A stretch of 64,000 nucleotides of DNA, taken from contig JAGQNR010000001.1 in NCBI GenBank assembly GCA_020427985.1, positions 89,784 to 153,783 of the forward strand, given 5' to 3'. The stretch comes from Candidatus Saccharimonadota bacterium. GTDB lineage: Bacteria > Patescibacteriota > Saccharimonadia > Saccharimonadales > UBA4665. Of the stretch, positions 11,579 to 64,000 are shown one piece after another (positions within the stretch are counted from its first letter, which is position 1; the number at the start of each line of letters is the position of its first letter). The notes under the pieces are model-generated. The model did no database searches. It was not told the origin of the DNA and worked only from the letters and a program-made list of their open reading frames with translations. A program made the translations under genes and the position numbers.

Positions 11579-11615
11579 GCCTGAGGTGCGATAACAATCC
11601 GACTAGAGACTACAA

Positions 11616-11819: not shown

Positions 11820-11863
11820 CGGGGACTATTATACAACTTTAGCCCCCGATTCTCAATCTGTTG

Positions 11864-12097
11864 TTACTCTCCGCAGATTTCGCACGGAACTGTATGGTCA
11901 ATGATGAGACGTAAGTCTTCATCGGGTGTTTCTTGTAATGTGTCTTGTAGGTCGTAATACCTACATGCACAAACCTCTTCAATAGCTTGTGCCTCAAGCT
12001 CTTCGCGACTAAGTTTGTCATTGATAACAATGTCTAAACCGTGCTCTTTTGCGTACTGCTCAAGCTGCTTTTTTTGCTCTTCCTCAGACTTGTTCAT
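11864..12097 (-). CDS. small acidic hypothetical protein
   Basis: 77-aa ORF with SD (GGAGGG) upstream. It contains four Cys (CACR...CEIC). No family recognised. Confidence 0.5.
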   Translation of the reverse strand: MNKSEEEQKKQLEQYAKEHGLDIVINDKLSREELEAQAIEEVCACRYYDLQDTLQETPDEDLRLIIDHTVPCEICGE

Positions 12098-12290
12098 ATA
12101 CCCTCCATTCTAGTACACTTTGTAGTTTCTAGCCGAATTGTTAAGGCACCGGTTACTTATTCATAACCCTACTTATATACTACTCCATGTATTGGTATTA
12201 TTCAATACTTTTAGGCTATTTTGTACTATAAAAAAGGTATATCCCGATATATACCATCTAACACCTATATTACCTCTGTTTATTCTTGTA

Positions 12291-12338
12291 CTTTTTCTCT
12301 CTTTACTATATATAAATATATAGAAGAGAAGGAAGAAG
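12291..12338. repeat. imperfect inverted repeat in an AT-rich gap (candidate oriT/operator)
   Basis: Central palindrome CTATATAT-AA-ATATATAG (12306-12323) is flanked by a pyrimidine arm (12291-12305) that pairs with a purine arm (12324-12338). It lies 35 nt upstream of the replication-relaxation-like gene. Confidence 0.25.
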
Positions 12339-12373
12339 AGTGAGTGTGTAGGTAAAATTGGAAGTATTGTGAT

Positions 12374-13195
12374 ATGTCAGACAAACTCATTACATTAAAA
12401 CAAGGACAAATAGACGTATTAGAATTGCTGTATAAATACAGGTTTAGCAGTCGTCAGTTGATACTTGAAAGTATGGGTGAAGGTAGTGGTACAGACTTTA
12501 ATCTATATAAGAAACTAGAAGTCCTCATTAAACACGGATTAGTCTTTAAACGCCACGAGCCGCGTCAAAAACTGCTGGGTGTGCCATTTGCTTACTCGCT
12601 CACTCCAAAGGGCGTCAAAGCCCTTCAAACGCTGCCACAACATGACCATATATCGGACTCCATCATCAAAGGCTGGTATCGAAATAAAACGGTAGACCAG
12701 AAGTTCGTCAACCGCACCATAGCTATCCATAAATACACCAACCTGCTCAACAGGTTTTATCCATCCATAAAAGTCTTTACGCAACGTGACCTCGTGAATT
12801 TCTTCTATTTTCCTCCGCACCTTCCCGATGCGGTACTGTCCCTCCCATTAGAAGATGGCAGTTCATTGCGTTACTTCTTCGATATCATACCGTCAGGAAT
12901 GCCCAGAAAAGCCCTCGATGGTAAACTCATGAACTACTGCACCTTTTTCGATCTAGGTGGCTGGAAAGTCACCAAAAGTGACAATCCTGCAATCCTCCTT
13001 GTTGCAAGTAATGCCCGTGCTGAACGGCAACTGCAATATATCGCCCGTGCACGCTTGCAACGCTATGATGAACTCGACCTCCGTATCTTCACCACAACCG
13101 TGCAAGCACTTGCCAATATGAACGATGAGGGACTCATTTGGACTCGCGTTGACGATACAGACGAACCCCTCGAACTCACTCAGTTGCTCGGCTAA
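12374..13195 (+). CDS. replication-relaxation family-like winged-helix protein
   Basis: 273 aa. The N-terminal pattern LKQGQIDVLELLYKYRFSSRQL...LYKKLEVLIKHGLVFKR...YSLTPKGVKAL resembles Replic_Relax proteins. The assignment is by eye only. Confidence 0.5.
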   Translation: MSDKLITLKQGQIDVLELLYKYRFSSRQLILESMGEGSGTDFNLYKKLEVLIKHGLVFKRHEPRQKLLGVPFAYSLTPKGVKALQTLPQHDHISDSIIKGWYRNKTVDQKFVNRTIAIHKYTNLLNRFYPSIKVFTQRDLVNFFYFPPHLPDAVLSLPLEDGSSLRYFFDIIPSGMPRKALDGKLMNYCTFFDLGGWKVTKSDNPAILLVASNARAERQLQYIARARLQRYDELDLRIFTTTVQALANMNDEGLIWTRVDDTDEPLELTQLLG

Positions 13196-13211
13196 CTCTC
13201 TCGTTACATGC

Positions 13212-13242
13212 AAAAACCCGAGAGCCTAGTAAGGCTCCCGGG
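13212..13242 (-). terminator. rho-independent terminator for the 13276..13752 operon
   Basis: The minus strand reads CCCGGGAGCC-TTACTA-GGCTCTCGGG followed by TTTTT. Confidence 0.5.
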
Positions 13243-13275
13243 CTGCTGGTGCTTTCCTGGCAGAAAACACCACCC

Positions 13276-13752
13276 TTAGTTATGGGCATCTACCTGCACA
13301 AGCCACAGGTTCTTTGGATTCTTGAGGTAATACTCAAGTCCTTTCTCACTGATAACACTTTCACCACCGGGGCCAAATAGCTGACAGGTATTGCCATGGT
13401 AGCCACTTGCCTTAGAGAACTGGTAGCGTGACAGGTAATGTCCGTCTACTCGCTCAAACTCTTCGTTGTATATCTGCTCATCGGAGTAGTTAGCTAACAT
13501 CAGGCGAACTGTTTCCATCGTCTGCTTAAACTCATCGAATTGACCTTCCATAGCAGCCACAGCAGATGCTTGTGACTTCTTGGTGCTCAATTTCATGGGC
13601 TGCCAACAATCTTCCCACCGGCTTTCTTCTGCGGTGTAACTATACCAATCAAATTCGTGCCATTCCACCAAGTCATCCATGGTAGATTCTGCCACGTCTC
13701 GTGCTTCGGCGGCATCCGGTGCTTCAACTATTAATCGTACTAAGTAATGCAT
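13276..13752 (-). CDS. acidic hypothetical protein (leading-region cargo)
   Basis: 158-aa ORF downstream of DUF3768 in the same operon. Trp/Glu/Asp-rich. No family recognised. Confidence 0.6.
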   Translation of the reverse strand: MHYLVRLIVEAPDAAEARDVAESTMDDLVEWHEFDWYSYTAEESRWEDCWQPMKLSTKKSQASAVAAMEGQFDEFKQTMETVRLMLANYSDEQIYNEEFERVDGHYLSRYQFSKASGYHGNTCQLFGPGGESVISEKGLEYYLKNPKNLWLVQVDAHN

Positions 13753-45529: not shown

Positions 45530-46304
45530 GCGCACACTCGTTGTCGGCAACTGGAAAATGAATCTTACGACCCAACAATCGAGCCTGCTTTTACGGCGTC
45601 TACAGCAGAATATACAAGGACATAGGGCGGTGGAAGTAGTGCTAGCGCCGAGTATGCTTGCCTTGCAGCCGCTTAGCGTAGAAATAGACCGTCGCAAGTT
45701 TAAGCTCGCTGCCCAAAATGCCTACTTTAAAGACGAGGGCGGTTTTACCGGAGAGGTGAGCTTTGCCATGTTGCGCGGCATAGTTAGTTATGCCATCATT
45801 GGACATTCGGCACGTCGCTTGTATTTTGGCGAGACGCTTGACGATGTCACCCAAAAAGTAGAAGCAGCCGTTCGTAACGATATAACGCCAATCTTGTGCG
45901 TAGGTGAGACAAAGCGAGAGCGTGACGCTCGAGAAACTAAGCGAGTCATTTGTGACCAAGTAGTTAGTGCGCTAGCCAACCTCACTAGTGCTGAGATTGA
46001 TTCGGTAGTCATTGCTTATGAACCAATCTGGGCTATATCGGCCTATGGTGGTGCAGTAGCAAAGCCCAGCGATGTTACCACTGTCGTCGAATATATCCGG
46101 CTTCAAATAAGAGAGCTGTACGGTAAACTTGCCGCAGAACGAGTGCGAGTGCTGTACGGAGGCAGTGTAGATGCCCATGACGTCAAGGGATTCTTGTCGA
46201 TAAAGGGCATCGACGGTGTTCTTGTTGGAGCGGCCAGTATTAGCGCAAATAAATTTGTAAATATTGTCTCGGCTGCATATCAAACACACACGGAGGTGCA
46301 GTAA
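45522..46304 (+). CDS. tpiA: triosephosphate isomerase (non-canonical loop 6)
   Basis: VVGNWKMN, IGHSARR, AYEPIWAISAYGG, LYGGSV. ATG 45522 overlaps the pgk stop (ATGCTTAG). Confidence 0.85.
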   Translation: MLRRTLVVGNWKMNLTTQQSSLLLRRLQQNIQGHRAVEVVLAPSMLALQPLSVEIDRRKFKLAAQNAYFKDEGGFTGEVSFAMLRGIVSYAIIGHSARRLYFGETLDDVTQKVEAAVRNDITPILCVGETKRERDARETKRVICDQVVSALANLTSAEIDSVVIAYEPIWAISAYGGAVAKPSDVTTVVEYIRLQIRELYGKLAAERVRVLYGGSVDAHDVKGFLSIKGIDGVLVGAASISANKFVNIVSAAYQTHTEVQ

Positions 46305-46305
46305 A

Positions 46306-47043
46306 ATGCAAGACGAAAACCAGGCTCCAAAGACCATGGATATTCACCCGGCTGGTACAAATCCCGCTTCTCTGACAAGCCGACCAGTCATTGTCACCAA
46401 TCGTCCTATGGCTGCCGACCCAATGCTTCATGTAAGTAACGATGACGCTACGGCAAATCCTTCTAGCGAAGCGACCGAAGGCACTAAAATAGCGTCAAGT
46501 CGACATTCGAGGACTATTGACCCACTTTCAACAGCTACTCATTCACAGCGGGTATCTGCCGCCGAGCCCGATGCTACTGCTGCGCAACCAACGGATACTG
46601 AACCAACAGAGGGAGATACAACACTTCCAAAGTCTGACACACCATCAACAGCTTCAGAGCAACCACTTCTTGCCGATTCTGAATCAGTCCCTGCAGGTCC
46701 TCGGTCTTCTCGAGCGCCTGTCGATTCGACTACTGCCGATCCCACAGTAGACACCGATGATGACCAGCTAGCAGACGATGAAGACGACACCCATATTGAC
46801 CAGATTGCTGGTGACACCATGCTGCAAGAAAAAACTGCAGAGCAACTTCGTAGGGAGCAGCTAGAGCAGTTGGCTCAAAAGGGCACTTATGCGCTGCCAA
46901 TATATACAGCTCGTCGGCGTCGCAAATCTATTATTGTAGGATCGATTGTGGGCGCACTTTTGATTGTAATGCTGCTGAATCTGCTTATGGATATGCAGCT
47001 GTTTGAGTTGCCTCTGCCCCATACAAACCTACTCGCCCCCTAG
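46306..47043 (+). CDS. acidic low-complexity protein with C-terminal TM anchor
   Basis: SD GGAGG lies before ATG 46306. A Thr/Asp/Pro/Ser-rich disordered body is followed by the TM helix IIVGSIVGALLIVMLLNLLM. Confidence 0.55.
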   Translation: MQDENQAPKTMDIHPAGTNPASLTSRPVIVTNRPMAADPMLHVSNDDATANPSSEATEGTKIASSRHSRTIDPLSTATHSQRVSAAEPDATAAQPTDTEPTEGDTTLPKSDTPSTASEQPLLADSESVPAGPRSSRAPVDSTTADPTVDTDDDQLADDEDDTHIDQIAGDTMLQEKTAEQLRREQLEQLAQKGTYALPIYTARRRRKSIIVGSIVGALLIVMLLNLLMDMQLFELPLPHTNLLAP

Positions 47044-51794: not shown

Positions 51795-51967
51795 GTATGT
51801 TTTTAGAATATTGACACCACCAACCCTTCGCTGACAGTTTCGTCACCAACAGCTTCCTCGCGTTTTAAGAAAACGGCCTACATTAAGGCATCGGCTCACG
51901 ATGACGGCAAGATGGCAAGCAATGAAGCACTATGATTTGCCGTTCGTAGCTCCGTAGGAGCGAAAAA

Positions 51968-52358
51968 TGGTGGAGCTGGCGGGTACTGCCCCCGCGTCCG
52001 CGGAAATTGTCGATATGTCTCTACAGGTTTAGTCTATTTTATGGTCTTAGCACCCATGTATCGAAACAGACAAACAGCATGGGTGAGCAATCCTAGGCTT
52101 AGCACGGGGAATGGATAGTACCACGTGAGCGGCTAGAAATATAAAACGCTACTCTAACTATCTAGCGTCGTCAAAGGCGTTGCCTAGATATAAAACTAGG
52201 CTGTTTGAAGCGCGAACTGAGGAGCAACAAAGTTGCGAAGATCAGCAACGCGGTTCATGAATGATGTTTTTGCATCTATTCTGGTTTGCCTATAACGCTG
52301 ACAAGCGACCTGCAAACAATATCGTTAATGTTCTACGTCGAGCTTAAAATTCAGCCCC
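51968..52358 (-). ncRNA. ssrA: tmRNA (SsrA)
   Basis: 5' end GGGGCTGAATTTTAAGCTCGACG. 3' end GCGGGGGCAGTACCCGCCAGCTCCACCA. Acceptor stem with G3:U70. The internal tag frame ends ...APQFALQTA-TAG. Confidence 0.85.
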
Positions 52359-52498
52359 ATAGCTACTATTATAGCACGAAACACAAGCATTTACAAGAGC
52401 GTCAAATGAAGGTTTAAAAATTGTTGAAAAAATTGTAACAAAAATCATAGTTAATTCTCAGGTTGATAGTGCATGATGGTGACAGAAAGGAGAACCAT

Positions 52499-52864
52499 AT
52501 GAAATATAGAACTATTGTACAAAAAATAAAGGCTATCGCTGGAGCGCGTGAAGACGAATCGCAAGACGCACTTGAGGTGGTGGTCGAAAACGTCGCTGCC
52601 AATTTGACCGACTTTACTCGTCGTAGCTTTGCTGCCAAGTTACCCGAAGAACTACAGAGCGCTGCTCAAATGGTGCCAACCATTACTCACATCGACGAAG
52701 ACATCATTGACCAACTAATGGAGCTAGAGGATATCGACGAGCACAAGGCCCGGCGCTATATTAAGGCGGTCTGGCAAACGCTTTGTGAGTTGTTTGACAG
52801 CGAATCGGTCGAAGATATTACCGCAGAGCTGCCACACAAAATGATAGTAACCCTTGAATCCTAA
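52499..52864 (+). CDS. DUF2267-like protein
   Basis: SD AAGGAG before ATG 52499. An acidic two-repeat helical protein with the LPEEL/ELPHK pattern. The family call is tentative. Confidence 0.5.
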   Translation: MKYRTIVQKIKAIAGAREDESQDALEVVVENVAANLTDFTRRSFAAKLPEELQSAAQMVPTITHIDEDIIDQLMELEDIDEHKARRYIKAVWQTLCELFDSESVEDITAELPHKMIVTLES

Positions 52865-52932
52865 ATACAGTGAAATACATCACAAAGTGCTTACCGTAAA
52901 AGGTGTATAGTAGAGGCAGGAGGTACGATACC

Positions 52933-53097
52933 ATGTCACTAGTTGAAAAATTTCGTCACCAACGTAAATCCGAGAGCAAGGCTCGGTCCCAGCACCACAA
53001 GCATGATGGCCACAAAATGGCCGCGGTGGTAAATGAGCAACATCATCAGCGCTTACAGACACTCATTCAGATGCGCAAAGATGTCGGCCAGGCATAA
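52933..53097 (+). CDS. small basic His-rich hypothetical protein
   Basis: 54 aa. SD GGAGG lies 9 nt before ATG 52933, and a terminator follows. Confidence 0.4.
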   Translation: MSLVEKFRHQRKSESKARSQHHKHDGHKMAAVVNEQHHQRLQTLIQMRKDVGQA

Positions 53098-53117
53098 CGC
53101 AGTCTAACCAACCATAA

Positions 53118-53145
53118 ACGGCCGCCCAAGGAGCGGTCGTTTTTG
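53118..53145. terminator. hairpin terminator between convergent genes
   Basis: ACGGCCGC (53118-53125) pairs with GCGGTCGT (53133-53140), with a 7-nt loop, followed by TTTT. Confidence 0.5.
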
Positions 53146-53163
53146 AGTAAGAGGTACACGCTG

Positions 53164-54141
53164 TTATTTGTGCCTTGATTGCAGATACTCCTCTAGCCCA
53201 TGGTGAAGATGTTGTTTTCCGTTCCAGATGACGATGTTGTAGCCTTTGGGAAACTCGGCAGGATTTTCTTGGCGAAAGTCGATTGAACGCACACTTGGAG
53301 GTAGCGCAAGGCTCATATGCCTATCTGTGCCTCCATTAACTCCAAACTTATCACCCCAAACTTCCAGCTCATCTGGGTTGTTAACATCATCAAGATTGAG
53401 GCCAACAGTCTCTAATATTTTGACATCTGCTAACACGGTCTGGATAGATGTAGTCTTAGACACACCTTCAATCGCAAAATCTAAGGCAAAATTGCCTCCA
53501 AATCGAGGAGTCAAGGGCAATTTGGCCTGGGCAAATAATTCGATAGAGCGATGCTGTATGGCTGCGCGTAAATCGTATTTGCCATGAACCACTGGGACTG
53601 AATAGTCAACTGCTGCTCGCTGCTCTTGTGTCATGTTGGTGCCATTGACTATTTCCATAGTGATTTGAGGCCCACGGTCATCGAGCATGATGTCTTGTGG
53701 GTCGTGTCCTATAGTGCTCCAAAAGTCGGTTTTTGCCTGAGCGGGGTGAGGTCTAAGCGCAAACTCATCAACGAGCTGCCGAACAATACTTCTCCAGGAG
53801 TCTTTCATATCATCAGTAAAAATCGACTCATAAATGCTATAAAACGGCGCATCCCTCAAGTCTCCACCTGTATCAAACCCCCATACTTCAGCCCCACTAC
53901 AATGACTCACTAGTATGTCTTTACGCAATGAGGAGTCAATATAATCAATAATATCTCGCTGCACGCGAGCTAAGCTACCTCCAGTAACCATAAATAATTT
54001 ATTCCCATCCTGCAAGAATGATGAGAGTTCCTCAATCATGCCTGGTTCGGCGGGCGAGTAAACTTCTGCGATAGTCTCATCTACATCAGAAAAGGCTAGT
54101 CGGATAGAGTCGTTATAAATTATTTGTGGCTCATTGTTCAT
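53164..54141 (-). CDS. HAD-superfamily hydrolase (IIB/phosphomannomutase-like)
   Basis: Motif I is AFSDVDETIAE, and a later GD motif is WGDKFGVNGGTD. The start was chosen at MNNEPQ (54141). The longer ORF to 54291 would run through the tRNA-Ala terminator. Confidence 0.7.
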   Translation of the reverse strand: MNNEPQIIYNDSIRLAFSDVDETIAEVYSPAEPGMIEELSSFLQDGNKLFMVTGGSLARVQRDIIDYIDSSLRKDILVSHCSGAEVWGFDTGGDLRDAPFYSIYESIFTDDMKDSWRSIVRQLVDEFALRPHPAQAKTDFWSTIGHDPQDIMLDDRGPQITMEIVNGTNMTQEQRAAVDYSVPVVHGKYDLRAAIQHRSIELFAQAKLPLTPRFGGNFALDFAIEGVSKTTSIQTVLADVKILETVGLNLDDVNNPDELEVWGDKFGVNGGTDRHMSLALPPSVRSIDFRQENPAEFPKGYNIVIWNGKQHLHHGLEEYLQSRHK

Positions 54142-54281
54142 TGCAGCATGATAACAGTATTTATAAGTAATGAGTAGCGCTAGGGTCAAGACCACAGCGC
54201 TCGCAAGGCTCGCTTCTCCGTTCACTGGCGTTCGCTCCGCCAAGCCGGGGTTTTCGCCCCGCGCGAGATTGCCACCAAAGC

Positions 54282-54304
54282 AAAAACCCACCTAGTGGTG
54301 GGCT
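54282..54304 (-). terminator. rho-independent terminator of tRNA-Ala
   Basis: The minus strand reads CCCACC-ACTA-GGTGGG followed by TTTTT. Confidence 0.55.
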
Positions 54305-54311
54305 CTTACTT

Positions 54312-54388
54312 TGGTGGAGATACGGGGACTCAAACCCCGGACCTCAGCGCTGCCAGCGCTGCGCTCTAATCAACTGAGCTATATCCCC
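54312..54388 (-). tRNA. tRNA-Ala (anticodon GGC), CCA encoded
   Basis: GGGGATA acceptor with G3:U70. Anticodon stem CAGCG/CGCTG with loop CTGGCAG. T-arm CGGGG-TTTGAGT-CCCCG. 3' ACCA. Confidence 0.9.
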
Positions 54389-54477
54389 ATACATTGTTAA
54401 AAGTTCACTCTACTGACCCAGAACGAATATCGTAGAAGTTGCCAAGAGCGCAACACACTATTTTCGCTGAAGGCTCC

Positions 54478-54497
54478 TCAACTGAGCTATATCCCAC
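54478..54497 (-). other. tRNA-Ala 5'-half-like fragment
   Basis: An 18-nt identity (TCAACTGAGCTATATCCC, 54478-54495) with tRNA-Ala 54370-54387. No matching 3' acceptor or T-arm follows. Confidence 0.4.
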
Positions 54498-54608
54498 CAT
54501 TGCTTTTAATATAGGTTGCATAGCAGTTTTGAACGAAATTAGTGTATACCAAAAGACATATTTTTACCAGTGTGGTACTCGGTAGGACCGTGAGGTATAA
54601 TTTATCTT

Positions 54609-56240
54609 ATGCTTATACGACTTATTAAACTTGTGGGCAATTTATATTCATGGTCCTTGCCCCAAAAGCTCCTCATTGCATACCGCGACCATGGCAGCTC
54701 AATTAGTAAGTACTTAAAATGGTTCTGGACAACTAAAACACTTGAACCAGCCCATCGGCAGCTTCGGTCAGCCGATTATCCTATTGTTGCCTTACTGCTT
54801 GGGATTTTTGCATCGAGTATTATTGCCGCTGCGTATCTTTTGACAGAGTGGGTGCGACATGCTACCCCTGGCTCTTTGCCGTTTGCACTGGCGCTCCTGT
54901 TGGCCTATCCAGTGCTCATGGCACACCTGCTTGCAGTGGCGGCATGTATGAAGCGAGGGGTGTACTTTGCTACTCACCCTAAAAAAGCTGGTCGCGAGCT
55001 CATTGCTACCATTCTTGAACGCCAAGTGCGCAAGCTACGGCATAGGCACAAGTTTACCGTCGTGGCGGTAAGTGGTTCGGTGGGCAAAACAAGCACCAAG
55101 CTCGCTGTAGCAGAACTGCTTGGTCAGACGCTGCGCGTGCAACACCAGGCCGGCAATTATAACGATCGTCTTACGGTGCCACTAGTGTTCTTTGGTCACC
55201 AGCAACCGGCACTGTTGAATGTTTTTGCTTGGTCCAGGCTCATTGGTGATGTTATTGCTCAAACCCAGCAGCCGTACCCTTACGATGTGGTTGTGGTAGA
55301 ACTTGGTACCGATGGTCCGCGCCAAATGCGCGAATTTGCTTATATTAAACCAGATATCACGGTTATTACTGCCATTACCCCCGAACATATGGAGTATTTT
55401 GGCACGCTGGATGCTGTGGCAGCAGAGGAGCTTGAGGTGTTTAGCTTCAGCAAACGTGTGCTGGTAAATGCCGACGATATTGCTGGCAAATATCTGCTTG
55501 GTAAAACCTTTGATGTCTACAGTATGACTACCAACGTGGCCGAGAATTACTATGCTAAAGTTACCAGGCCTACTCTACAGGGACAGACTATTACTGTCGA
55601 CATTCCCTCGGGCAAGCTGAGTGCGCACATTGCATTTGTTGGCTACCATGGTGCTAAATACGCGCTGGCAGCGACTGCGGTGGCCGATATGCTGGGATTG
55701 TCGCACGAAGATATTGCCGGTGGGCTTGTTAGGCTCACCCCCTTCCCAGGCCGCATGCAGGTGCTAAACGGCGTCAAAGATTCAATACTTATCGACGACG
55801 CATACAACGCCACGCCTATTGCCGCCAAAGCAGCACTTGATGTGCTTTATGCCGAGAAAGCACCTCAGCGTATCGCCATACTTGGCAGCATGAACGAGCT
55901 GGGCGATTATGCTCGCGAAGCGCATGTAGAAGTGGGTGACTACTGTGACGCCCACAAACTTGCCATGGTTGTGACGGTCGGAAACGATGCCAAGCGGTGG
56001 CTGGCACCCGCAGCCAAAGCTAAAGGCTGTACCGTCCATAGCTACATGAGTCCCTACGATGCTGGTAATTTTGTGCGTCAACACCTCAAAACAGGTGCCG
56101 TTGTTCTGGGCAAAGGTTCGCAAAATGGCGTGTTTGTCGAAGAAGCGCTTAAACAGCTACTAGCGCACCCGGCCGATGTTAGCAAGCTTGTCCGCCAGTC
56201 TCACAAATGGCTCCGCACCAAAGCAAAACAGTTTAACTAG
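54609..56240 (+). CDS. Mur ligase family protein (MurF-like) with N-terminal transmembrane extension
   Basis: 543 aa. Two or three TM helices, then P-loop AVSGSVGKTSTK, DDAYNATP and GSMNELGDYAREAH. TATAAT lies 7 nt before the ATG. Confidence 0.8.
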   Translation: MLIRLIKLVGNLYSWSLPQKLLIAYRDHGSSISKYLKWFWTTKTLEPAHRQLRSADYPIVALLLGIFASSIIAAAYLLTEWVRHATPGSLPFALALLLAYPVLMAHLLAVAACMKRGVYFATHPKKAGRELIATILERQVRKLRHRHKFTVVAVSGSVGKTSTKLAVAELLGQTLRVQHQAGNYNDRLTVPLVFFGHQQPALLNVFAWSRLIGDVIAQTQQPYPYDVVVVELGTDGPRQMREFAYIKPDITVITAITPEHMEYFGTLDAVAAEELEVFSFSKRVLVNADDIAGKYLLGKTFDVYSMTTNVAENYYAKVTRPTLQGQTITVDIPSGKLSAHIAFVGYHGAKYALAATAVADMLGLSHEDIAGGLVRLTPFPGRMQVLNGVKDSILIDDAYNATPIAAKAALDVLYAEKAPQRIAILGSMNELGDYAREAHVEVGDYCDAHKLAMVVTVGNDAKRWLAPAAKAKGCTVHSYMSPYDAGNFVRQHLKTGAVVLGKGSQNGVFVEEALKQLLAHPADVSKLVRQSHKWLRTKAKQFN

Positions 56241-56262
56241 AGTCGCGTAGTACAATAATACA

Positions 56263-56994
56263 GTGCAGATTATCGTAGACTCGGCGCCAATAGACTATTC
56301 TGATAAAGGAACTGGTAAAACTTTGGTTTTTTTGCATGGATGGAAAGACTCCAAGGCCACTTGGAAGCCACTCATGCACCATCTCGTGGATCAATATCGC
56401 TGTGTAGCGTTCGACCTCCCAAATTTTGGTGCAAGCGGGGAAAATGACGCTTGTATTACACCGAAACAATATGCTGAGCAGGTTGCTCTGGCACTCGAAA
56501 AACTCAATATTGACCACTACACTCTTGTTGGCCATTCTATGGGTGGTCAGATTGCTATGTATGGTGTTGGCGAAGGCATTTTGCGGCCCGTACATCTCAT
56601 ATTGATTGCTGCAGCAGGTGTGCGCCAAAAATCAGCAGCAAAAAAAGTGTTGCAGGTTGCGGCGAAATCTATAGGTGTTATGTTGCCATCCCAGGTGAAA
56701 AAGTGGTTTTATGCACTTATTGGGTCAGACTATGACCCTGGACTAAGCCCTGTGCTAAAGCGCGTAATTGCCGCTATGCTTAGCACTGATGTGACTGCGC
56801 AAGCGGCTGCCGTGAAAGTGCCAACGACATTACTCTACGGCGCCGAAGACACTGCTACGCCTCCTGCGTACGGCAAGCTACTCCACGAGCACATTGCAGG
56901 CTCACAGTACATTGAGGTCGAGTCTGCCAACCATTGGCTGCACAAGAGCGCGGCTAGCGACATAGCAACGATTGTTAAGAAAGTCGTGCAATGA
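56263..56994 (+). CDS. alpha/beta-fold hydrolase
   Basis: VFLHGW, nucleophile elbow GHSMGG, C-terminal ANHWLH. GTG start lies 6 nt after TACAAT. Confidence 0.8.
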   Translation: MQIIVDSAPIDYSDKGTGKTLVFLHGWKDSKATWKPLMHHLVDQYRCVAFDLPNFGASGENDACITPKQYAEQVALALEKLNIDHYTLVGHSMGGQIAMYGVGEGILRPVHLILIAAAGVRQKSAAKKVLQVAAKSIGVMLPSQVKKWFYALIGSDYDPGLSPVLKRVIAAMLSTDVTAQAAAVKVPTTLLYGAEDTATPPAYGKLLHEHIAGSQYIEVESANHWLHKSAASDIATIVKKVVQ

Positions 56995-58433
56995 AGTTTT
57001 GGTTATCTTTCTTTCACCCCAGAGCACCCATATTTCTCGTGTATATGCTACAGCAAGTGGAATATAGGGTGGCAGGGTTTCAGAAATGGGTAGATGTGCT
57101 CACTAACACAAACCATCCGCTCACATCGGTCATGAAGCGCCAAAAACTCGTTCCAACAACGAAAGCCAAGCTATTGGTCGGGCTAGGATATGGAGTCATA
57201 ACGCTCTGGGTGCTCCTGTTTACGGTGTGGCTGCTGGCAGGTGGCACGCCGATGATACTTTTTGTAAGAGTAGCACTTGGTCTATTGGCGTTGCCGGTCA
57301 GCTTGATACTAACCTATTTTTTAGTGGTAGGCTTGGCCGGTTTGGTATATACGAACACAGTAGAACGCAAACGCCTGGAATATTGTCGAGAATACCTACA
57401 GACATACTCAGGAAAGGTTATTGTGGTGGCTGGTAGTTATGGCAAAACCAGCATGAAAGAACTACTTTTGGCAACGCTCAGTGCACACTGTAACGTTGCA
57501 GCTACGTCAGGCAATGGCAACACGCCTTCTGCTCACGCAGCATTTATCCGCAGCCTCGAAGGGAACGAAGACTACCTCATTTTTGAGTTAGGTGAAGGTA
57601 AACCGGGTGATGTGCGGCGGTTTGCCGAGGCGTTACGTCCTGATTACGCTGTTGTCACCGGGCTCGCACCAAACCACCTCGACCAGTACGACTCAATTGA
57701 TGCACTTGCGCAAGATATGCTCTCTCTACGGCAGTATGTGCCGGCCAATGCGTTGTTTTTTGCGGGTGACTCGACAATATTGCGCGCGTATGTAGCTTCG
57801 TCAGATAGCTGTTATGACGAGCAGGGTGCTTTGAGCTGGCAGGTACAGCAGGTAGCTGTGTCGACAGAGGGAACACATTTTCGTCTGGTCAAAGGACGTG
57901 AGAAACTAGATATGAAAAGCCATCTTTTAGGTCGACACCAGATAGCTCCCATTGCTTTTGCTGTAGCCTTTGCACTTTATTGTGGTGTGCCACACCAAAA
58001 AGCTGCGCGTGCTATAGAGACCGTGTTTCCCTATGCTCATCGCATGCAACCATCAACGTTGTCTGGGGCAATACTCATAGATGACACATACAATGGCAAC
58101 CTCGAGGGCATGTTGGCGGGCTTAAGGCTTTTACAAGACTTGAAGGCTGAGCGCAAGATATACATTACCCCCGGGCTAGTTGACCAAGGGGCAGAAACAC
58201 AGCGTGTGCATCGACAAATTGCTGAGCAAATTGCAGCCACTCGACCAGATTGGGTGGTGCTTATGCAAAACTCGGCGACCGATATTATCACTTCAGAGCT
58301 ACAAGCACTCGGCTATGGCGGAAAAGTTACATATCAAAGCGATGCGTTGAGATTCTACCAAAATCTTAGTCAGTTCGTGCGAGCAGGCGATATAGTAATG
58401 ATGCAGAACGATTGGACAGATAATTACCACTAG
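56991..58433 (+). CDS. second Mur ligase family protein (MurF-like) with N-terminal transmembrane extension
   Basis: 480 aa. TM helices, then VVAGSYGKTSMK, IDDTYNGN and ITPGLVDQGAE. ATGA overlap with the hydrolase gene. Confidence 0.8.
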   Translation: MKFWLSFFHPRAPIFLVYMLQQVEYRVAGFQKWVDVLTNTNHPLTSVMKRQKLVPTTKAKLLVGLGYGVITLWVLLFTVWLLAGGTPMILFVRVALGLLALPVSLILTYFLVVGLAGLVYTNTVERKRLEYCREYLQTYSGKVIVVAGSYGKTSMKELLLATLSAHCNVAATSGNGNTPSAHAAFIRSLEGNEDYLIFELGEGKPGDVRRFAEALRPDYAVVTGLAPNHLDQYDSIDALAQDMLSLRQYVPANALFFAGDSTILRAYVASSDSCYDEQGALSWQVQQVAVSTEGTHFRLVKGREKLDMKSHLLGRHQIAPIAFAVAFALYCGVPHQKAARAIETVFPYAHRMQPSTLSGAILIDDTYNGNLEGMLAGLRLLQDLKAERKIYITPGLVDQGAETQRVHRQIAEQIAATRPDWVVLMQNSATDIITSELQALGYGGKVTYQSDALRFYQNLSQFVRAGDIVMMQNDWTDNYH

Positions 58434-58450
58434 CAGGGTATACTAGAGAG

Positions 58451-59614
58451 ATGAAAACAGTCGCTGTCTTTTTTGGTGGACGTTCTACCGAACACGATAT
58501 ATCAATTATTACTGCGCTAACCAGTATTATAAAACCACTCGAACTCACGGGTTTGTATAGGGTACTACCAGTGTATATCGACCGTAGTGGTAACTGGTAC
58601 TGCGACGAACGTTTAAGTCATATTTCATTTTTTAGGTCGAAACAATTTGAAAAAAACCTATCCCAGGTAAAACCAATAGGGGTAAAACTTTCAAATGGGC
58701 TTACGCTGCTTATGACGAGTCGAATCAAACAACGAGAAATCAGAGTCGATGTTGCATTTCCGGCGATGCATGGAACGTATGGTGAAGACGGGAGTCTAAT
58801 GGGCTTGCTTGAAATGGCGGGCGTACCGTATGTTGGGTGCAATTTGGCAGCGAGTGTAATCGCCATGGACAAAGTGCTTGCTAAGCAAGTTACGCAGACC
58901 GACAACATACCATCAACGCCATGGGTGTGGTGTACGGCTGCTGAAACAGCGCTGAATACCGACACAGTTATAGCGAGAGCCGAAGAGCAACTGGCGTGGC
59001 CTATGTTTGTGAAACCAGCACATCTGGGTTCGAGTATTGGTATAAGTCGTGTCACAAACAGGCTGGAGTTGCGCAATGCTCTCGAGGTCGCGACCCACTA
59101 CGATGACAAAATAATTATTGAGCAAGGGGTTGCGAACCTCGTTGAGGTCACTCTGCCTATTATGGGCAATGAAGCACCCCGACCAGCACTATTGGAGCGG
59201 CCACTCACTACGGCCAAGGACTTCTTTGACTTTGACACAAAGTACCTGCAGGGTGGTAAAAAAGGTGGCAAGGCTGGTGGCAAAACAGCAGGCGCGCAGG
59301 GCTACAGCGAACTACCGGCAGATATCCCCAAAACACTCTACGACAGGGCGATTGAGGTTGGGCTGGAGGTGTACCGTTCGCTTGGTTGCAGTGGCACGGC
59401 TCGAGTGGACATGCTCATAGATAGCAAAAAAGACGAAATATATTTTAACGAAGTGAACCCTTTGCCAGGTAGTTTGTATGCACATAATTGGCGTGCCGCT
59501 GGGGTGGCAGGTGTTGAGTTGGTTGAAAAGCTTGTCACACTTGCCGAGGAACGTCATGGCATACTCGCCAAACGTACCCGTATATTTTCGAGTAGTTTTC
59601 TGCAACAGTTCTAG
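58451..59614 (+). CDS. ddl: D-alanine--D-alanine ligase
   Basis: VAVFFGGRSTEHDISI, HGTYGEDGSLMGLLEMAGVPYVG, EVNPLPGS. Confidence 0.9.
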   Translation: MKTVAVFFGGRSTEHDISIITALTSIIKPLELTGLYRVLPVYIDRSGNWYCDERLSHISFFRSKQFEKNLSQVKPIGVKLSNGLTLLMTSRIKQREIRVDVAFPAMHGTYGEDGSLMGLLEMAGVPYVGCNLAASVIAMDKVLAKQVTQTDNIPSTPWVWCTAAETALNTDTVIARAEEQLAWPMFVKPAHLGSSIGISRVTNRLELRNALEVATHYDDKIIIEQGVANLVEVTLPIMGNEAPRPALLERPLTTAKDFFDFDTKYLQGGKKGGKAGGKTAGAQGYSELPADIPKTLYDRAIEVGLEVYRSLGCSGTARVDMLIDSKKDEIYFNEVNPLPGSLYAHNWRAAGVAGVELVEKLVTLAEERHGILAKRTRIFSSSFLQQF

Positions 59615-59699
59615 TACGATGCCTGGCGCTACAAACGGTATGCGCTACGCCAACTTGCTTATGCTGTACTAATTGCGACTTTTGCGCAAAAATAGTGCC

Positions 59700-61310
59700 A
59701 TGCCAGAGTACGGAAAAGATGGCTTTCCAACAGCCACACCAAATTATGATGAGATAAACTACATCTCTGACCGACTCGGTGCGACAATACTCATCGGCCA
59801 GTATGAACCCAACTACACGATTCTCGATACACTTGAGCTCGGTACTTATCAAATTGGCGAAAAATATATGGGCATACATGACCCAGTCTGGGGCGAGTGT
59901 TTGATAGGTGATGAGCCGTACGATGCTATGCTGCTACAGCTGGCACGGACGCCACTGTTTCGCCGAGCCCAGGCAATTGAACAGCTGACGCTCGGGCCAA
60001 ACTATGCCACCATGCCAAATGGCATGTACTTCTCACGCTGGCAGCATATTTGGGGCAGTCTGGCATTTGTCAGGAAAATGACTGAGGGCGATTCTCGGTT
60101 TGATCCGCGTGAGCGCATGGTACTGCAGCTCAGAACACTGTTGTCAGATGTCGGGCACACGGCCTTCTCGCACCTCGGAGATTGGCTGTTCCAGGGTACC
60201 AATGCCGGCGATGACCTCCATGACCAAGAGCTCAAAAGCCTGCTGGCGACGACCGGCATCAGTGCTATTTTGGACAAATACGGCTTTACGCTTGACGAAA
60301 CAGTATTTCCAGAGGTGAAAGATTGGGTTGAGTGCCCCTCTCCAAATCTTTGCGTCGATAGGGTTGATTATGGGATGCGCGAGCTGTTGCGCTGGAGTAA
60401 CCATTTCTTAAGACTGTACGAGTACAAATCCGAGCTCAGTAATCCGAAATCGCTTTTTGAAATTAATGACGATTTAGAGCTCGTTATCACCGACAAGCGG
60501 TTTGCCCAGAAGTTTGCCGCTGGCTACGGTATATTACCAACCGAGCACTGGAATCATCCTGTCCAAAATACCCAGCTCTATCTGCTTGAAAACGCGGTGA
60601 AAGGGGCACTGCTTGAGGGAGTGGCTCAGTTTGGGGAGCATCCGCGTGATGCTATGTTTGGTATTGATGCAGATTTTGAACAGTATTTTCGCACCTGGGA
60701 CGTCATGCACTTTGATAAGTTACTCAGAGACATTGCGCTGTCACAGAGGTATATCTTTACCACTGCTCGGCAGTATGACCTCGCAAGAGTGTTCTATCAA
60801 GAGACTGATGCATGGAGATTTCCAGAGTTTCCGCACCCGCTTGAGTCATACTCTTGGCAGTCAAGGGAGCACGGAGGACCATACGCGCCACAGATAGAAG
60901 TCGAAGAAGCCGAAGTGGCAGCTCATGCACTGCGCACCGTTGCGGCCGGTATCCAGGTCGATTTGCCCAGAAAAAAGCCGCGCTCAATCGACCCAGTTAT
61001 TAAACAAGAGCAAAAGTACCTGAGGCTGAGCGAGATAGATAGTACCTATCAGCAATATCTTGATGGGCAGCGCAAAGTTATGAGTATCTCGCACATGGCC
61101 ACAATTCTTGTGCGAAGTGGAGTTGCCAAGATTGTAGCGGAGAAATACGACCAGATTCAGGCAGATTGGGAACAAGCAGTGCAGCTGCCGAGAAGCCCCC
61201 GTGCTGTCGCCGAGCGCATTGCGATGACCATGCCGTTCGCCGCCGCAAGAAGCTTTGACTCAATCTACGAATCTGACGACAGAGATATTACTAAGCGAGC
61301 CAAAAGATAG
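59700..61310 (+). CDS. HD-domain-like protein with a degenerate HD dyad
   Basis: RWQHIWGSLAFV ... LRTLLSDVGHTAFSHLGD resembles the SAMHD1/dGTPase-type HD pattern, but it reads SD where HD is expected. ATG 59700 was preferred over TTG 59673. Confidence 0.6.
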   Translation: MPEYGKDGFPTATPNYDEINYISDRLGATILIGQYEPNYTILDTLELGTYQIGEKYMGIHDPVWGECLIGDEPYDAMLLQLARTPLFRRAQAIEQLTLGPNYATMPNGMYFSRWQHIWGSLAFVRKMTEGDSRFDPRERMVLQLRTLLSDVGHTAFSHLGDWLFQGTNAGDDLHDQELKSLLATTGISAILDKYGFTLDETVFPEVKDWVECPSPNLCVDRVDYGMRELLRWSNHFLRLYEYKSELSNPKSLFEINDDLELVITDKRFAQKFAAGYGILPTEHWNHPVQNTQLYLLENAVKGALLEGVAQFGEHPRDAMFGIDADFEQYFRTWDVMHFDKLLRDIALSQRYIFTTARQYDLARVFYQETDAWRFPEFPHPLESYSWQSREHGGPYAPQIEVEEAEVAAHALRTVAAGIQVDLPRKKPRSIDPVIKQEQKYLRLSEIDSTYQQYLDGQRKVMSISHMATILVRSGVAKIVAEKYDQIQADWEQAVQLPRSPRAVAERIAMTMPFAAARSFDSIYESDDRDITKRAKR

Positions 61311-61333
61311 ACAGGCAAAACTCTACGAGTACC

Positions 61334-61342
61334 TGCTATACT
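61334..61342 (+). promoter_or_regulatory. extended -10 (TGcTATACT) directly upstream of leuS
   Basis: TG at 61334-61335 and TATACT at 61337-61342. ATG 61350 lies 7 nt downstream. There is no SD and no room for a T-box leader. Confidence 0.45.
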
Positions 61343-61349
61343 AACAGAT

Positions 61350-64000
61350 ATGAAACGCTACAATCCAAAAGAAATCGAACCCAAGTGGCAGCAGATATGG
61401 GACGAGCAGCAAACCTACCATGCTGACTTAGCGTCAGACAAGCCCAAGTATTTTGCGATGAGCATGTTTAACTACCCCAGTGGTCACGGCATACACATCG
61501 GTCACGCCATGAACTACACTATTAGCGATGTCATGGCGCGGTTTAAGCGCCAACAGGGCTACGAAAGCTATCACCCGGTAGGCTGGGACGCCTTTGGCTT
61601 ACCGGCCGAAAACTACGCCATCAAGACCGGTGTTAGCCCGCAAGAGAGCATGGCCAGCATTATCCCCGGCTACCACGCCCAGTACAAAGCCATGGGCTGG
61701 AGCAACGACTGGAGCAAAGAAATCGCTACCTGCGACCCCGAGTACTACAAGTGGACGCAGTGGATATTCTGGAAAATGTACGAGCAAGGTATGGTCTACC
61801 AAGACGAACGCTTGCAGTGGTGGTGCACCAAGTGCCAAACGGTCTTAAGCAACGAGCAGGTGATAGATGGCAAATGTTGGCGCCACGACGCTGCCGACGA
61901 CCCTGAAGTCGGCAAAAAAGCGGTCAAGCAGTGGTTTTTCCGTATCACCGACTACGCCAACGAAATGCTCGAGGCAACCCATGACCTCGATTGGTCAGAG
62001 GCCGTCAAAACTGCTCAGATAAACTGGATCGGCAAGAGTGAGGGTGCCGAGGTGACATTTGCCCTGGCAAATGACCACGAGTCACGGCCGAACTTTGTGA
62101 TTTTACATGGGTTTACTGGTCATGCAAACGCACACTTTATTCCGAGGCTCAAATCTGACTTAGAGTCCAGAGGCTACCAGGTGCAGGCTCCACAAATGCC
62201 GAACACCGACAATCCTGTCGAGGCAGAGCAGGTAAACTATGTTTTAGAAAACTGCACTTTCGATAAAGACACCGTCTTGATTGGACATAGTTTGGGTGGT
62301 GCAGTGGCAATCAAAGTGCTCGAAAAGCTTGATCACCCAATTGAGTCGTTGGTGCTCGTTGCGCCTGTCGTCGAGCCAGCATTTCGCGGAGAGAACTATA
62401 AAAATGAAAACCCAAATAGACCGCCAAGATTGTTTGTCGATACCTTTGATATCAGCTATGACTATGACCAGATTGTAGCCAAAACAAAATCGAGGATAGT
62501 GTTGTCAGATGCCATGGAGGTCAAAAGAAAACCATATCTTGACTATCTCGCTCCCAAAATCGATGCCGCACTCCATGAAACAACGGCCGCAAAAATACAC
62601 TTTACCTCAGGCAACGAGCCTTTTATTTTAGAGGTCCTTGACTCGTGCCTCTTGACTCGTGCTTCTGATAAAAACATCACTGTCTTTACGACGCGGCCAG
62701 ATACGCTTTACGGCGCAACCTTTTTGGTGCTGGCGCCTGAACACGAGCTGGTGCGTAGTATTACGACAGACGAGCAGCGAAGTGAAATAGAGGCCTACAT
62801 AACAGAGGCCGAGAAAAAATCCGAGGTGGAACGCCAAGAGAGCAAGGACAAAACCGGTGTCTTTACCGGTGCGTACGCGGTCAATCCGGTTAACAATCAA
62901 AACATCCCAATCTGGATAGCCGACTACGTACTGACGGGCTACGGTACCGGTGCCATTATGGCCGTGCCGGCACACGACGAGCGCGACAACGAGTTTGCCC
63001 AGAAGTTTGACCTGCCAATCACGCAGGTGATAGCTCCATATATCGTTTACGATGATGAGGAGTTTGCCCCCCGTGATGGATTAGATAACCTTAAAAGAAG
63101 AACGGTAGACGCCATTATCACTGATGGCAACAACAACTACTTACTGGAAACAGAAGATGAGAAAAATGTTCACTTTGTAGGCGGAGGCGTTGACAAAACC
63201 GATGCCGATGATATCGCTGCACTACGCAGGGAAATAGCAGAAGAAGTCGGCTTTACTAATATCGCCAGTATCAAAATGGCCGCACCATACAACGCAGCAC
63301 ATGCATATCGCAAGACCAAAAACGTCAACCAGGTTACTTGGGGGCAGTTTTATGAAGTTACCCTTGGATCTCTAGCGCAAGAACGAAGTGAAATTGAAGA
63401 CGGGAAACACAGTATTATGTGGGTTACTAAGGAAGAAGTTGCCGCCAAACTCACCTGGAAGGGCCATGCAACAGCTTGGAACCACTATATCAATGGATCA
63501 AGTGAAGTGTTTCACCAGGAAGGTCTCATGGTCAATTCGGGTGAGTACGACGGGATGGAGAGCGCCAAGGCCCGCGAGCAGATCGTGCAGGATCTGGAGG
63601 GCAAGGGTCTGGCCAAGTTTGTCACTAACTTCCGCATCCGCGACTGGAGCGTGGCGCGGCAGCGCTATTGGGGTGCGCCGGTGCCCATCATCAATTGTCC
63701 GGTTGACGGCCAAGTACTCGTGCCAGAGCAAGACCTGCCTGTGGTACTACCAGAGTTGAAAGACTTTGCACCGAGCGGTGATGGCCGCAGTGCTTTGGCT
63801 CGTGCCACCGACTGGCTTAAGGTAGATTGCCCCAAGTGCGGTGGTCCAGCCGAGCGCGAAACCGATACACTCGATACATACATTTGCAGTAGCTGGTATT
63901 TCCTACGCTACCTTGACCCGCATAATAGTCAGGCAGCTTTTGGCTCAAATGTCGCCAATAAATGGATGCCTGTTGACTTCTACAACGGCGGTGACCACGC
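61350..64000 (+). CDS. leuS: leucyl-tRNA synthetase (3' end outside window) with two inserted domains
   Basis: The frame is open for 883 codons to the window end. It is absent from the ORF track because no stop is reached. Landmarks: GIHIGHAMNY (HIGH), NWIGKSEGAEVTF, TTRPDT, GTGAIMAVPAHDERD, FRIRDWSVARQRYWGAPVPI, ETDTLDTYICSSWYFLRY. Confidence 0.9.
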   Translation, partial: MKRYNPKEIEPKWQQIWDEQQTYHADLASDKPKYFAMSMFNYPSGHGIHIGHAMNYTISDVMARFKRQQGYESYHPVGWDAFGLPAENYAIKTGVSPQESMASIIPGYHAQYKAMGWSNDWSKEIATCDPEYYKWTQWIFWKMYEQGMVYQDERLQWWCTKCQTVLSNEQVIDGKCWRHDAADDPEVGKKAVKQWFFRITDYANEMLEATHDLDWSEAVKTAQINWIGKSEGAEVTFALANDHESRPNFVILHGFTGHANAHFIPRLKSDLESRGYQVQAPQMPNTDNPVEAEQVNYVLENCTFDKDTVLIGHSLGGAVAIKVLEKLDHPIESLVLVAPVVEPAFRGENYKNENPNRPPRLFVDTFDISYDYDQIVAKTKSRIVLSDAMEVKRKPYLDYLAPKIDAALHETTAAKIHFTSGNEPFILEVLDSCLLTRASDKNITVFTTRPDTLYGATFLVLAPEHELVRSITTDEQRSEIEAYITEAEKKSEVERQESKDKTGVFTGAYAVNPVNNQNIPIWIADYVLTGYGTGAIMAVPAHDERDNEFAQKFDLPITQVIAPYIVYDDEEFAPRDGLDNLKRRTVDAIITDGNNNYLLETEDEKNVHFVGGGVDKTDADDIAALRREIAEEVGFTNIASIKMAAPYNAAHAYRKTKNVNQVTWGQFYEVTLGSLAQERSEIEDGKHSIMWVTKEEVAAKLTWKGHATAWNHYINGSSEVFHQEGLMVNSGEYDGMESAKAREQIVQDLEGKGLAKFVTNFRIRDWSVARQRYWGAPVPIINCPVDGQVLVPEQDLPVVLPELKDFAPSGDGRSALARATDWLKVDCPKCGGPAERETDTLDTYICSSWYFLRYLDPHNSQAAFGSNVANKWMPVDFYNGGDH

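Follow-up and report, generated by a model that had tools for sequence, protein, structure and literature searches.

Strain-variable enzyme domains nested in the editing domain of a Saccharibacteria leucyl-tRNA synthetase

The leuS locus and its two nested domains

The stretch analysed here, which we call the window, comprises 64,000 nt of the forward strand of contig JAGQNR010000001.1 (positions 89,784 to 153,783) from the Candidatus Saccharimonadota (Saccharibacteria, TM7) assembly GCA_020427985.1. It ends within leuS, the gene for leucyl-tRNA synthetase (LeuRS), whose 5' part occupies 61350..64000 on the plus strand as 883 codons of open frame from the ATG to the window end; two whole enzyme domains, cargo 1 and cargo 2 in what follows, are nested inside the CP1 editing domain of its product. 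Despite being partial, this sequence scores 675.1 bits against the bacterial LeuRS model TIGR00396 (leuS_bact; cut-off 548.4). The full gene was recovered from a second contig (L089; Ga0209203_1000162, JGI, 58 kb), located by means of a wobble-degenerate pattern derived from cargo 1 and 100% identical to window positions 60674-64000, in which leuS continues for about 886 nt beyond the window end to give a product of 1178 aa. As this independent contig repeats both insertion junctions exactly, the architecture is not an assembly artefact, and an assembly chimera, a possibility raised in an earlier note on this DNA, is ruled out, the junctions being further upheld by more than 25 homologues from other samples with the same architecture at the same positions.

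Alignment to Thermus thermophilus LeuRS (2v0c/1h3n) resolves the window protein into three collinear blocks (E = 7e-180), with query residues 1-240, 440-561 and 720-881 matching Thermus residues 1-237, 240-362 and 376-538, respectively. The first insert (aa 241-439, 199 aa, nt 62070-62666) thus stands where the Thermus enzyme has 2 residues, and the second (aa 562-719, 158 aa, nt 63033-63506) where it has 13 (Thermus 363-375). The earlier note, which was made from the letters of the window, had placed both long segments correctly to within a few residues. It had also put them at the beta-strand tethers that hinge CP1 to the catalytic core, and in this it was mistaken, because both lie within the editing-domain model PF13603, between profile positions ~17/18 and 143/144. 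The first site is the hairpin between Thermus residues 237 and 240, 8 residues ahead of the TTRPDT motif, and the second is the loop past the conserved Asp and the next helix. The latter is probably the I4 position, which has been described for LeuRS between helices alpha2 and alpha3 of CP1 and which in eukaryotes holds a cap over the editing pocket (PMC3747510). As judged from sequence order, both cargoes would be carried in the vicinity of the editing site.

Around the two inserts the synthetase itself is of the ordinary kind. The N-terminal catalytic (Rossmann) core (aa 1-226, 61350..62027, plus strand; PF00133/PF09334) carries the HIGH motif (aa 49-52, 61494-61505) and is followed by the first CP1 strand, IGKSEGAEVTFALA (62028..62069). 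The conserved CP1 editing core (aa 440-561, 62667..63032, equivalent to Thermus 240-362; PF13603 at aa 438-564) then lies between the two cargoes and contains the Thr-rich motif TTRPDT (aa 447-452, 62688-62705) and the GTG...AHDERD stretch, GYGTGAIMAVPAHDERD, which ends at aa 546 (nt 62987). Beyond cargo 2, the C-terminal part of CP1, with the GLMVNSGEYDG... helix (63507..63672), leads back to the catalytic core (63673..64000, equivalent to Thermus 431-538), whose zinc-binding CPxC...CPKCGG region is cut by the window end. All of these elements are on the plus strand. The KMSKS equivalent, TMFSKSKGN, is found in the full-length L089 sequence, where it lies some 2.0 kb beyond the end of the window; it is conserved throughout the clade. 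Thus, HIGH, the Thr-rich motif, the GTG loop, the Asp, the zinc region and a KMSKS-type motif follow each other in the same order as in the bacterial enzymes of T. thermophilus (1H3N/2V0C) and Escherichia coli (4AQ7). The clade differs from the Thermus enzyme in the two domains that interrupt CP1 and in its version of the KMSKS motif, (T/Q)MFSKS, in which the first Lys is not kept. The product is, on these motifs, a bacterial LeuRS of the housekeeping type, as the earlier note had held, and is predicted to be editing-competent. Since HIGH, TTRPDT and the GTG/Asp elements are intact in every architecture class described below, the cargoes supplement the native editing site rather than taking its place; the idea that a cargo substitutes for a degenerate editing site is ruled out by the same motifs.

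Cargo 1 (62070..62666, plus strand) is a nested alpha/beta serine hydrolase of the YdeN/RBBP9 family, the assignment made in the earlier note and now supported by family profiles, a profile search of PDB sequences, structure prediction and structural comparison. When excised, it matches the Pfam models Abhydrolase_1 with 39.8 bits (gathering cut-off 25.8) and Ser_hydrolase (PF06821) with 39.2 bits (gathering cut-off 22), and its profile retrieves YdeN of Bacillus subtilis (1UXO, E 2e-24) and human RBBP9 (E 2.5e-12). The AlphaFold2 model of the excised domain (pLDDT 94.8, pTM 0.91) has as its top Foldseek matches 1UXO (TM-score 0.74/0.80) and RBBP9, including the phenylalanine complex 7OEX, with TM-scores of 0.71-0.82 overall. 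An HG oxyanion motif (62106-62111) is followed by the nucleophile Ser314 in a GHSxG elbow (62289-62291), the acid Glu390 in the sequence DAME (62517-62519) and His417 (62598-62600). The acid is therefore not Asp387 of the VLSD sequence, the earlier candidate, but lies three residues on; it aligns with Asp138 of RBBP9 and is Glu in the subgroup of the window and Asp in the other subgroup. For Glu108 of RBBP9 no confident alignment to cargo 1 was obtained, the position falling in a loop of variable length. Across 23 copies of this cargo, with a mean identity of 46%, Ser and His are invariant (23/23) and the acid is always D or E.

Cargo 2 (63033..63506, plus strand) is a Nudix hydrolase domain by profile and by fold, again as first proposed, with a box that is partly non-canonical. 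The excised insert matches NUDIX (PF00293) with 41 bits (gathering cut-off 21.1), so that each insert taken alone exceeds the Pfam gathering cut-offs, and its AlphaFold2 model (pLDDT 95.1) reaches a best Foldseek TM-score of 0.71/0.78. A PDB profile search agrees, and both excised models, at pLDDT ~95, match the respective hydrolase and Nudix folds. The nearest solved relatives are an uncharacterised MutT-like protein of Enterococcus faecalis (2AZW), the decapping effector AvrM14, NudI, Ap4A hydrolases and RppH, among which no single one stands out, and none of the NCBIfam equivalogs was reached. The Nudix box (63183-63254, plus strand) had been described as having the spacing of MutT with Ala in place of the first Glu. 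Its REIAEE helix (63228-63245) is indeed canonical, as are the other conserved elements of the box (G, RE, EE and G-U being present), but the spacing claim does not hold: there is a one-residue insertion, and the first position is Ala, or Asp if the insertion is counted. Over the 88 copies compared, which share a mean identity of 33%, four positions never vary (88/88), namely the box G and the three glutamates of RE and EE (E628, E631 and E632 in the window), whereas the first box Glu is E in 50/88. Both cargoes are thus complete, independently folding domains whose catalytic residues are under purifying selection.

The gene order mur, ddl, leuS, nusB, rnc is also found in relatives. Directly upstream of leuS, a 545-aa open reading frame (59673-61310, plus strand) lacks a Pfam match and keeps its position in the sister strain described below; a further open reading frame of 259 aa (46264-47043) likewise lacks a Pfam match. 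A free-standing 243-aa alpha/beta-hydrolase gene (56263-56994, plus strand) lies between two Mur ligase genes upstream of leuS. This gene and the free-standing NUDIX gene near leuS were considered as sources of the cargoes and rejected, their similarity to them being only remote (blastp E 7e-7 and 0.04).

Cargo turnover between strains, lineages and host proteins

A census of 193 sequences, assembled from 120 protein hits and 80 species-representative genome loci, less fragments, shows the same two loops to be either empty or filled with alternative cargo across the relatives, all of which are LeuRS of Candidatus Saccharimonadales / Saccharibacteria. In the 120 proteins the core segments are constant in length (237, 120 and ~438 aa), and the variation is confined to discrete classes at the sites, namely ~8, 119-156 and 180-204 aa at site 1 and ~10, 122 and 142-170 aa at site 2. 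An empty site is always the same loop, of 7-8 aa at site 1 and 10 aa at site 2. The most frequent architecture has an empty site 1 with Nudix at site 2 (82 sequences), followed by both sites empty (37), a short linker at site 1 with Nudix (18), the arrangement of the window with hydrolase and Nudix (15), and hydrolase with an empty site 2 (12). An ASCH domain, its identity supported by Pfam, occupies site 1 together with Nudix (8), with an empty site 2 (8) or with a domain that we term X122 (3); the short linker is also combined with an empty site 2 (5) or with X122 (2), and a domain termed Y is found at site 1 together with Nudix (3). X122 is a 122-aa domain of site 2 and Y a 136-152 aa domain of site 1 (examples being the L001 locus, 10001-13279 (P0004), and P0063, P0092, P0077 and P0119); neither was matched in Pfam or among PDB sequences. 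Cargo-free enzymes make up 42/175 non-redundant sequences, and the Nudix cargo can sit at either of the two sites. In two loci (L065 and L067) a second, canonical Nudix domain is present at a third site, some 28 residues beyond site 2.

The history of the cargoes is decoupled from that of the synthetase that carries them. Core identity and cargo identity are nearly uncorrelated (r = 0.18 and 0.14), and the nearest relative of the window hydrolase (P0078, 66% identical) has a core only 53% identical to that of the window. Conversely, the closest core (P0004; 100%, 97% and 94% identity in the three core segments) carries ASCH and X122. Among pairs with at least 88% core identity the architecture differs in 32/77, and at least 30 and at least 29 state changes are required on the core tree, a soft count because that tree is shallow.

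The locus of this closest core, L001, has synteny equal to that of the window and is ungapped against it from 51913 to 62086, with 54 mismatches in 10,174 nt; this identity of 99.47% makes the two sequences strains of one species. The N-terminal core differs by 0.6% in nucleotides, with 100% identical protein. A mismatch jump then sets in from nt 62030, the left flank (62028-62087) diverging by 28% with 10 synonymous and 3 non-synonymous codon changes, and cargo 1 is unrelated to what L001 carries in its place. The CP1 core between the cargoes differs by 3.4%, cargo 2 is again unrelated, the right flank (63504-63671) differs by 19.6% and the remainder by 1.5%. Outside the cargoes, divergence is thus limited to a left-hand tract of 57 nt and a right-hand one of ~170 nt, so that the first CP1 strand was swapped together with cargo 1 and the C-terminal part of CP1 together with cargo 2, each cargo having been exchanged with only a short outer flank that is deeply diverged and mostly synonymous. 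We infer that this is the pattern to be expected of homologous recombination with a distant donor, in which the crossover would fall in the first sufficiently conserved stretch. The constant loop length of the empty sites likewise fits allelic replacement better than imprecise deletion. Other close pairs (L003/L051/L029 and L001/L028), at ~80% DNA identity, are too diverged for breakpoint mapping.

At nt 51913, immediately 3' of the tmRNA gene (51968-52358, minus strand), the near-identity to the L001 contig (99.5%) comes to a sudden end. Past this point the window holds ordinary housekeeping genes (KsgA, a G5/DUF348 protein, UvrD/PcrA, TIM, PGK and PK), and the boundary resembles a break in synteny or a rearrangement at ssrA more than an obvious island. 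In the other direction, about 2.7 kb past the window end, a 200-nt block (L089 6000-6199) that lies close to where the free-standing NUDIX gene ends, ahead of the RNase III gene, shows 38 mismatches between the strains, which suggests another local recombination tract.

Nested cargo extends beyond Saccharibacteria and beyond LeuRS. An exhaustive search of 1.84 billion representatives with the hydrolase-cargo profile gave 76 hits at E <= 1e-30; among the best 150 hits, typed by size and with hosts assigned by Pfam, 81 have the size of a free-standing protein, ~50 belong to the class-Ia synthetases (LeuRS for the most part) and 19 are other proteins of more than 260 aa. In other lineages of the Candidate Phyla Radiation (CPR), LeuRS carries Ham1/ITPase (P0358), HAD (P0242) or GNAT (P0295) domains, or tandem arrays of cargo (P0236, P0301); the source of such examples, where traced, is Parcubacteria and Peregrinibacteria. 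The hydrolase is also found at LeuRS sites outside CP1 (P0249, P0289, P0279, P0350 (Peregrinibacteria)), the further positions seen in these proteins and in P0265 being one after an uninterrupted CP1 and one ahead of the anticodon-binding domain. The two CP1 loops and at least two further sites are thus insertion hot spots. Outside LeuRS, the YdeN/RBBP9-type domain is nested in UvrA, TsaD/Kae1, EngA/Der, AlaRS, SecA, ValRS and a formyltransferase, with copies in uncultured genomes (P0294, P0284, P0299, P0254, P0258/P0147, P0276/P0325/P0338 and P0297); the Kae1-like host may belong to a DPANN archaeon. Free two-domain proteins fuse the hydrolase to Nudix, peptidase S51 or S9, glyoxalase or riboflavin kinase, and free-standing YdeN-like proteins with 43-45% identity are present in Saccharibacteria, the genomic context of one such gene being uninformative.

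The junctions of cargo 1 were also searched for traces of a mobile element. In the window a short inverted repeat brackets this cargo, with its left arm, CACGAGTCACGG, at 62076..62087 and its right arm, a tandem 14-nt duplication (CTTGACTCGTGCCT / CTTGACTCGTGCTT), at 62636..62664 (both plus strand). A 9-mer of the repeat occurs 3 times in the 64 kb, always at the edges of cargo 1, against 0.37 expected. However, the inverted repeats at 14 site-1 and 42 site-2 junctions are no longer than those of mismatched left/right controls, and the hairpin z-scores of the small inserts and joined arms lie within the control range. The 9-12 nt inverted repeat was accordingly rejected as a mobile-element signature. 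The right arm consists of reverse-complement heptamers of the linker repeat in the sister allele: site-1 linkers are heptanucleotide tandem repeats, (CGAGTCA)n in that allele (L001 10740-10775), with its reverse complement at the right junction in the window, and (GCGGAAA)n, (CCAAAAT)n and (AGAGACA)n in L051, L052 and L030. Because each unit of seven nucleotides shifts the reading frame, the essential leuS gene stays in frame only when the number of units changes by three. No Pfam or NCBIfam family of Hint/intein splicing, homing endonuclease or transposase was found in the window protein. A Parcubacteria LeuRS (P0277; MCX6741383.1, Candidatus Parcubacteria) does carry an in-frame IS200-like Y1 (HUH) transposase domain at site 1 (aa ~250-390; PF01797, 52.8 bits), with HUH and Tyr motifs (PEHVHLL and SYIQNNP); enzymes of this type act on DNA hairpins or REP elements.

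Proposed passenger enzymes and competing explanations

We propose, with a probability of roughly 0.55, that the cargoes are autonomous passenger enzymes, lodged in CP1 loops that tolerate them and exchanged between alleles as cassettes through homologous recombination. Cassettes would be gained, lost and replaced by crossovers in the conserved parts of leuS that flank each loop, which would explain why empty sites are always the loops of 7-8 aa and 10 aa. The cargoes would act as self-contained enzymes with no need to take part in leucylation, cargo 1 perhaps hydrolysing aminoacyl or peptidyl bonds in the manner of RBBP9, with a free alpha-amine as a requirement, and cargo 2 serving as a compact pyrophosphohydrolase of nucleotides or dinucleotides. 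By being nested in an essential and conserved gene, they would be expressed constitutively, be shielded from loss through imprecise deletion and have handles ready for recombination.

Several observations weigh against this proposal. Both sites are near the editing motifs in sequence, and site 2, if it is indeed the I4 position, would place cargo 2 by the opening of the editing pocket. The clean breakpoints come from one strain pair only. For the Nudix cargo clade essentially no free-standing relatives were found, and its presence at site 2 in 126/193 LeuRS (65%) fits a function dedicated to this synthetase. Three apparent exceptions were set aside, one protein (P0206) having proved to be a frameshifted leuS fragment, another (P0208) being only 31% identical and the Nudix halves of the free YdeN+Nudix fusions being generic, at 16-34 bits. 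The hosts of the hydrolase, too, mostly handle tRNA or aminoacyl-tRNA: ~50/69 of its large hits are class-Ia aminoacyl-tRNA synthetases, mostly LeuRS, with ValRS, AlaRS, formyltransferase and TsaD besides, which hints at a translation-linked role. Finally, the chemistry of RBBP9 is that of aminoacyl-tRNA deacylation: the enzyme is described as cleaving an amide, ester or thioester bond, and its acyl-enzymes form with Leu/Ile, Met, Phe, Tyr and Trp and require the free alpha-amine (PMC8866121).

These points are also the strength of a second reading, a serious but minority possibility in our estimate, in which the cargoes serve LeuRS as accessories that act in cis in quality control. Cargo 1 would deacylate aminoacyl-tRNA(Leu) or aminoacyl-adenylates that the native CP1 pocket leaves, and cargo 2, carried by the I4 loop, would act at the enzyme on nucleotide by-products, hydrolysing Ap4A for example. 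The confident structural membership of cargo 1 in the RBBP9 family, the invariance of the catalytic residues in both cargoes, the restriction of the Nudix clade to LeuRS and the Ap4A hydrolases among the structural neighbours of cargo 2 all agree with such a role, as does the prevalence of the editing synthetases LeuRS, ValRS and AlaRS among the hosts. However, strains of one species can dispense with the cargoes or interchange them, and the cargo-free enzymes noted above do without any of them. Unrelated chemistries (GNAT, HAD, Ham1, ASCH and Y1-transposase-like) occupy the same loops; SecA, UvrA, Der and TsaD likewise harbour the hydrolase, as do LeuRS sites outside CP1; and the native editing motifs are fully conserved, so that no editing gap is evident. 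To our knowledge, moreover, aminoacyl-adenylate is not a classical Nudix substrate. Cargo turnover, mixed chemistries, hosts other than synthetases and intact editing motifs together make a proofreading or Ap4A role less likely as the general explanation.

A third reading sees in the cargoes an on-target defence, which would detoxify inhibitors (mimics of aminoacyl-adenylates like microcin C or agrocin, for instance) or, alternatively, repair toxin-modified tRNA 3' ends, the repertoire turning over quickly as threats change. Strain-level polymorphism of the cassettes and a decoupled cargo phylogeny are typical of conflict loci, and Saccharibacteria live on antibiotic-producing Actinobacteria. 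Resistance to aminoacyl-nucleotide antibiotics is conferred by serine peptidases of the MccF type and GNATs of the MccE type, chemistries that the serine hydrolase, GNAT and Nudix set may be seen to parallel, and a curated NCBIfam model describes an IleRS with GNAT (NF040702). Against this, the hydrolase is of the YdeN/RBBP9 type and not MccF-like, Ham1, HAD and ASCH have no obvious fit, and the leuS neighbours are Mur ligases, Ddl, NusB and RNase III, with no toxin, immunity or defence genes adjoining (PADLOC was not searched); we therefore consider this reading improbable.

That the inserts are selfish elements, intein-like or transposon-borne, or else products of assembly or annotation with chimeric joins, is largely refuted and in our view very improbable, since, over and above the control comparisons and the independent contig, the cargoes are in frame and their catalytic residues are under purifying selection, even if the repeat around cargo 1 and the Y1 domain of the Parcubacteria protein could be read in its favour.

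Known systems and implications

The individual features of this system have precedents. Cargo 1 shares with YdeN (1UXO) and RBBP9 (human 2QS9 and 7OEX) the small, cap-less fold, the GHSxG and HG motifs, the His and the position of the acid, and departs from them in being nested in a domain of another protein, in having Glu as the acid and in an identity of only 21-26%. Cargo 2 resembles compact single-domain Nudix enzymes (the nearest solved relatives named above, at TM-scores of 0.60-0.78) in its fold and its invariant, metal-binding REUxEE helix, and is unlike them in lacking a conserved first Glu in the box and in belonging to a clade nearly confined to LeuRS. The sites themselves recall the known CP1 insertions (bacterial I2b and I4b, and I1ae-I4ae of archaea and eukaryotes), which are variable elements on a conserved CP1 catalytic core. 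Those, however, are loops or helices fixed per domain of life, whereas here whole enzymes of several unrelated families are inserted and are polymorphic within a species.

Likewise, the attachment of extra domains to housekeeping synthetases is familiar from IleRS-GNAT (NF040702) and from the WHEP, GST and EMAPII domains of eukaryotes. In contrast to such appended domains, those described here are internal, two levels deep (a cargo in CP1, itself in the Rossmann fold), interchangeable and drawn from multiple families. With inteins and homing elements they share an in-frame position in essential conserved genes, a patchy distribution and an apparent spread by recombination through conserved flanks; unlike inteins, they have neither Hint/splicing motifs nor a homing endonuclease, and the cargo is predicted to stay in the mature protein with its catalytic site kept. 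Thus, accessory domains on synthetases and nested domain insertion are already known, and what is unusual is that the nested enzymes are interchangeable, of many families and variable between strains. A 2026 survey of domain insertion lists the LeuRS editing domain (PF13603) as insertion-only, with 'zero instances of host function' (PMC13114784). In the literature searched, which does not span all journals, no earlier description of these LeuRS insertions was found, and the cassette set is apparently undescribed.

A broader proposal, which we put forward tentatively and regard as rather unlikely to hold in full, is that in the CPR, and perhaps in DPANN, essential enzymes serve as recombination-anchored carriers of a shared pool of small domains. 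LeuRS may be the main host, with ValRS, AlaRS, SecA, UvrA, TsaD/Kae1 and Der besides, and the pool may comprise the YdeN-type hydrolase, Nudix, ASCH, Ham1, HAD, GNAT, the Y1-transposase-like domain and unknown folds. Such carriers may amount to a domain-level accessory genome inside core genes, exchanged between strains via the flanks of the host gene. In LeuRS the cargoes by the editing pocket may additionally act on-target, on aminoacyl-tRNA, aminoacyl-adenylate or inhibitors, in proofreading, repair or resistance.

Few known proteins are as highly conserved as the aminoacyl-tRNA synthetases, and here the editing domain of one of them hosts whole enzymes, which public records hide under the label 'leucine--tRNA ligase' even though these can make up as much as half of the enzymatic content of the protein. 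The two sites are natural, evolution-tested permissive spots for engineering domain insertions into LeuRS, and the identity of cargo 1 offers a testable link between hydrolases of the RBBP9/YdeN family and aminoacyl-tRNA metabolism. If general, the arrangement would represent a new way for organisms with minimal genomes to carry and trade accessory functions inside their core genes.

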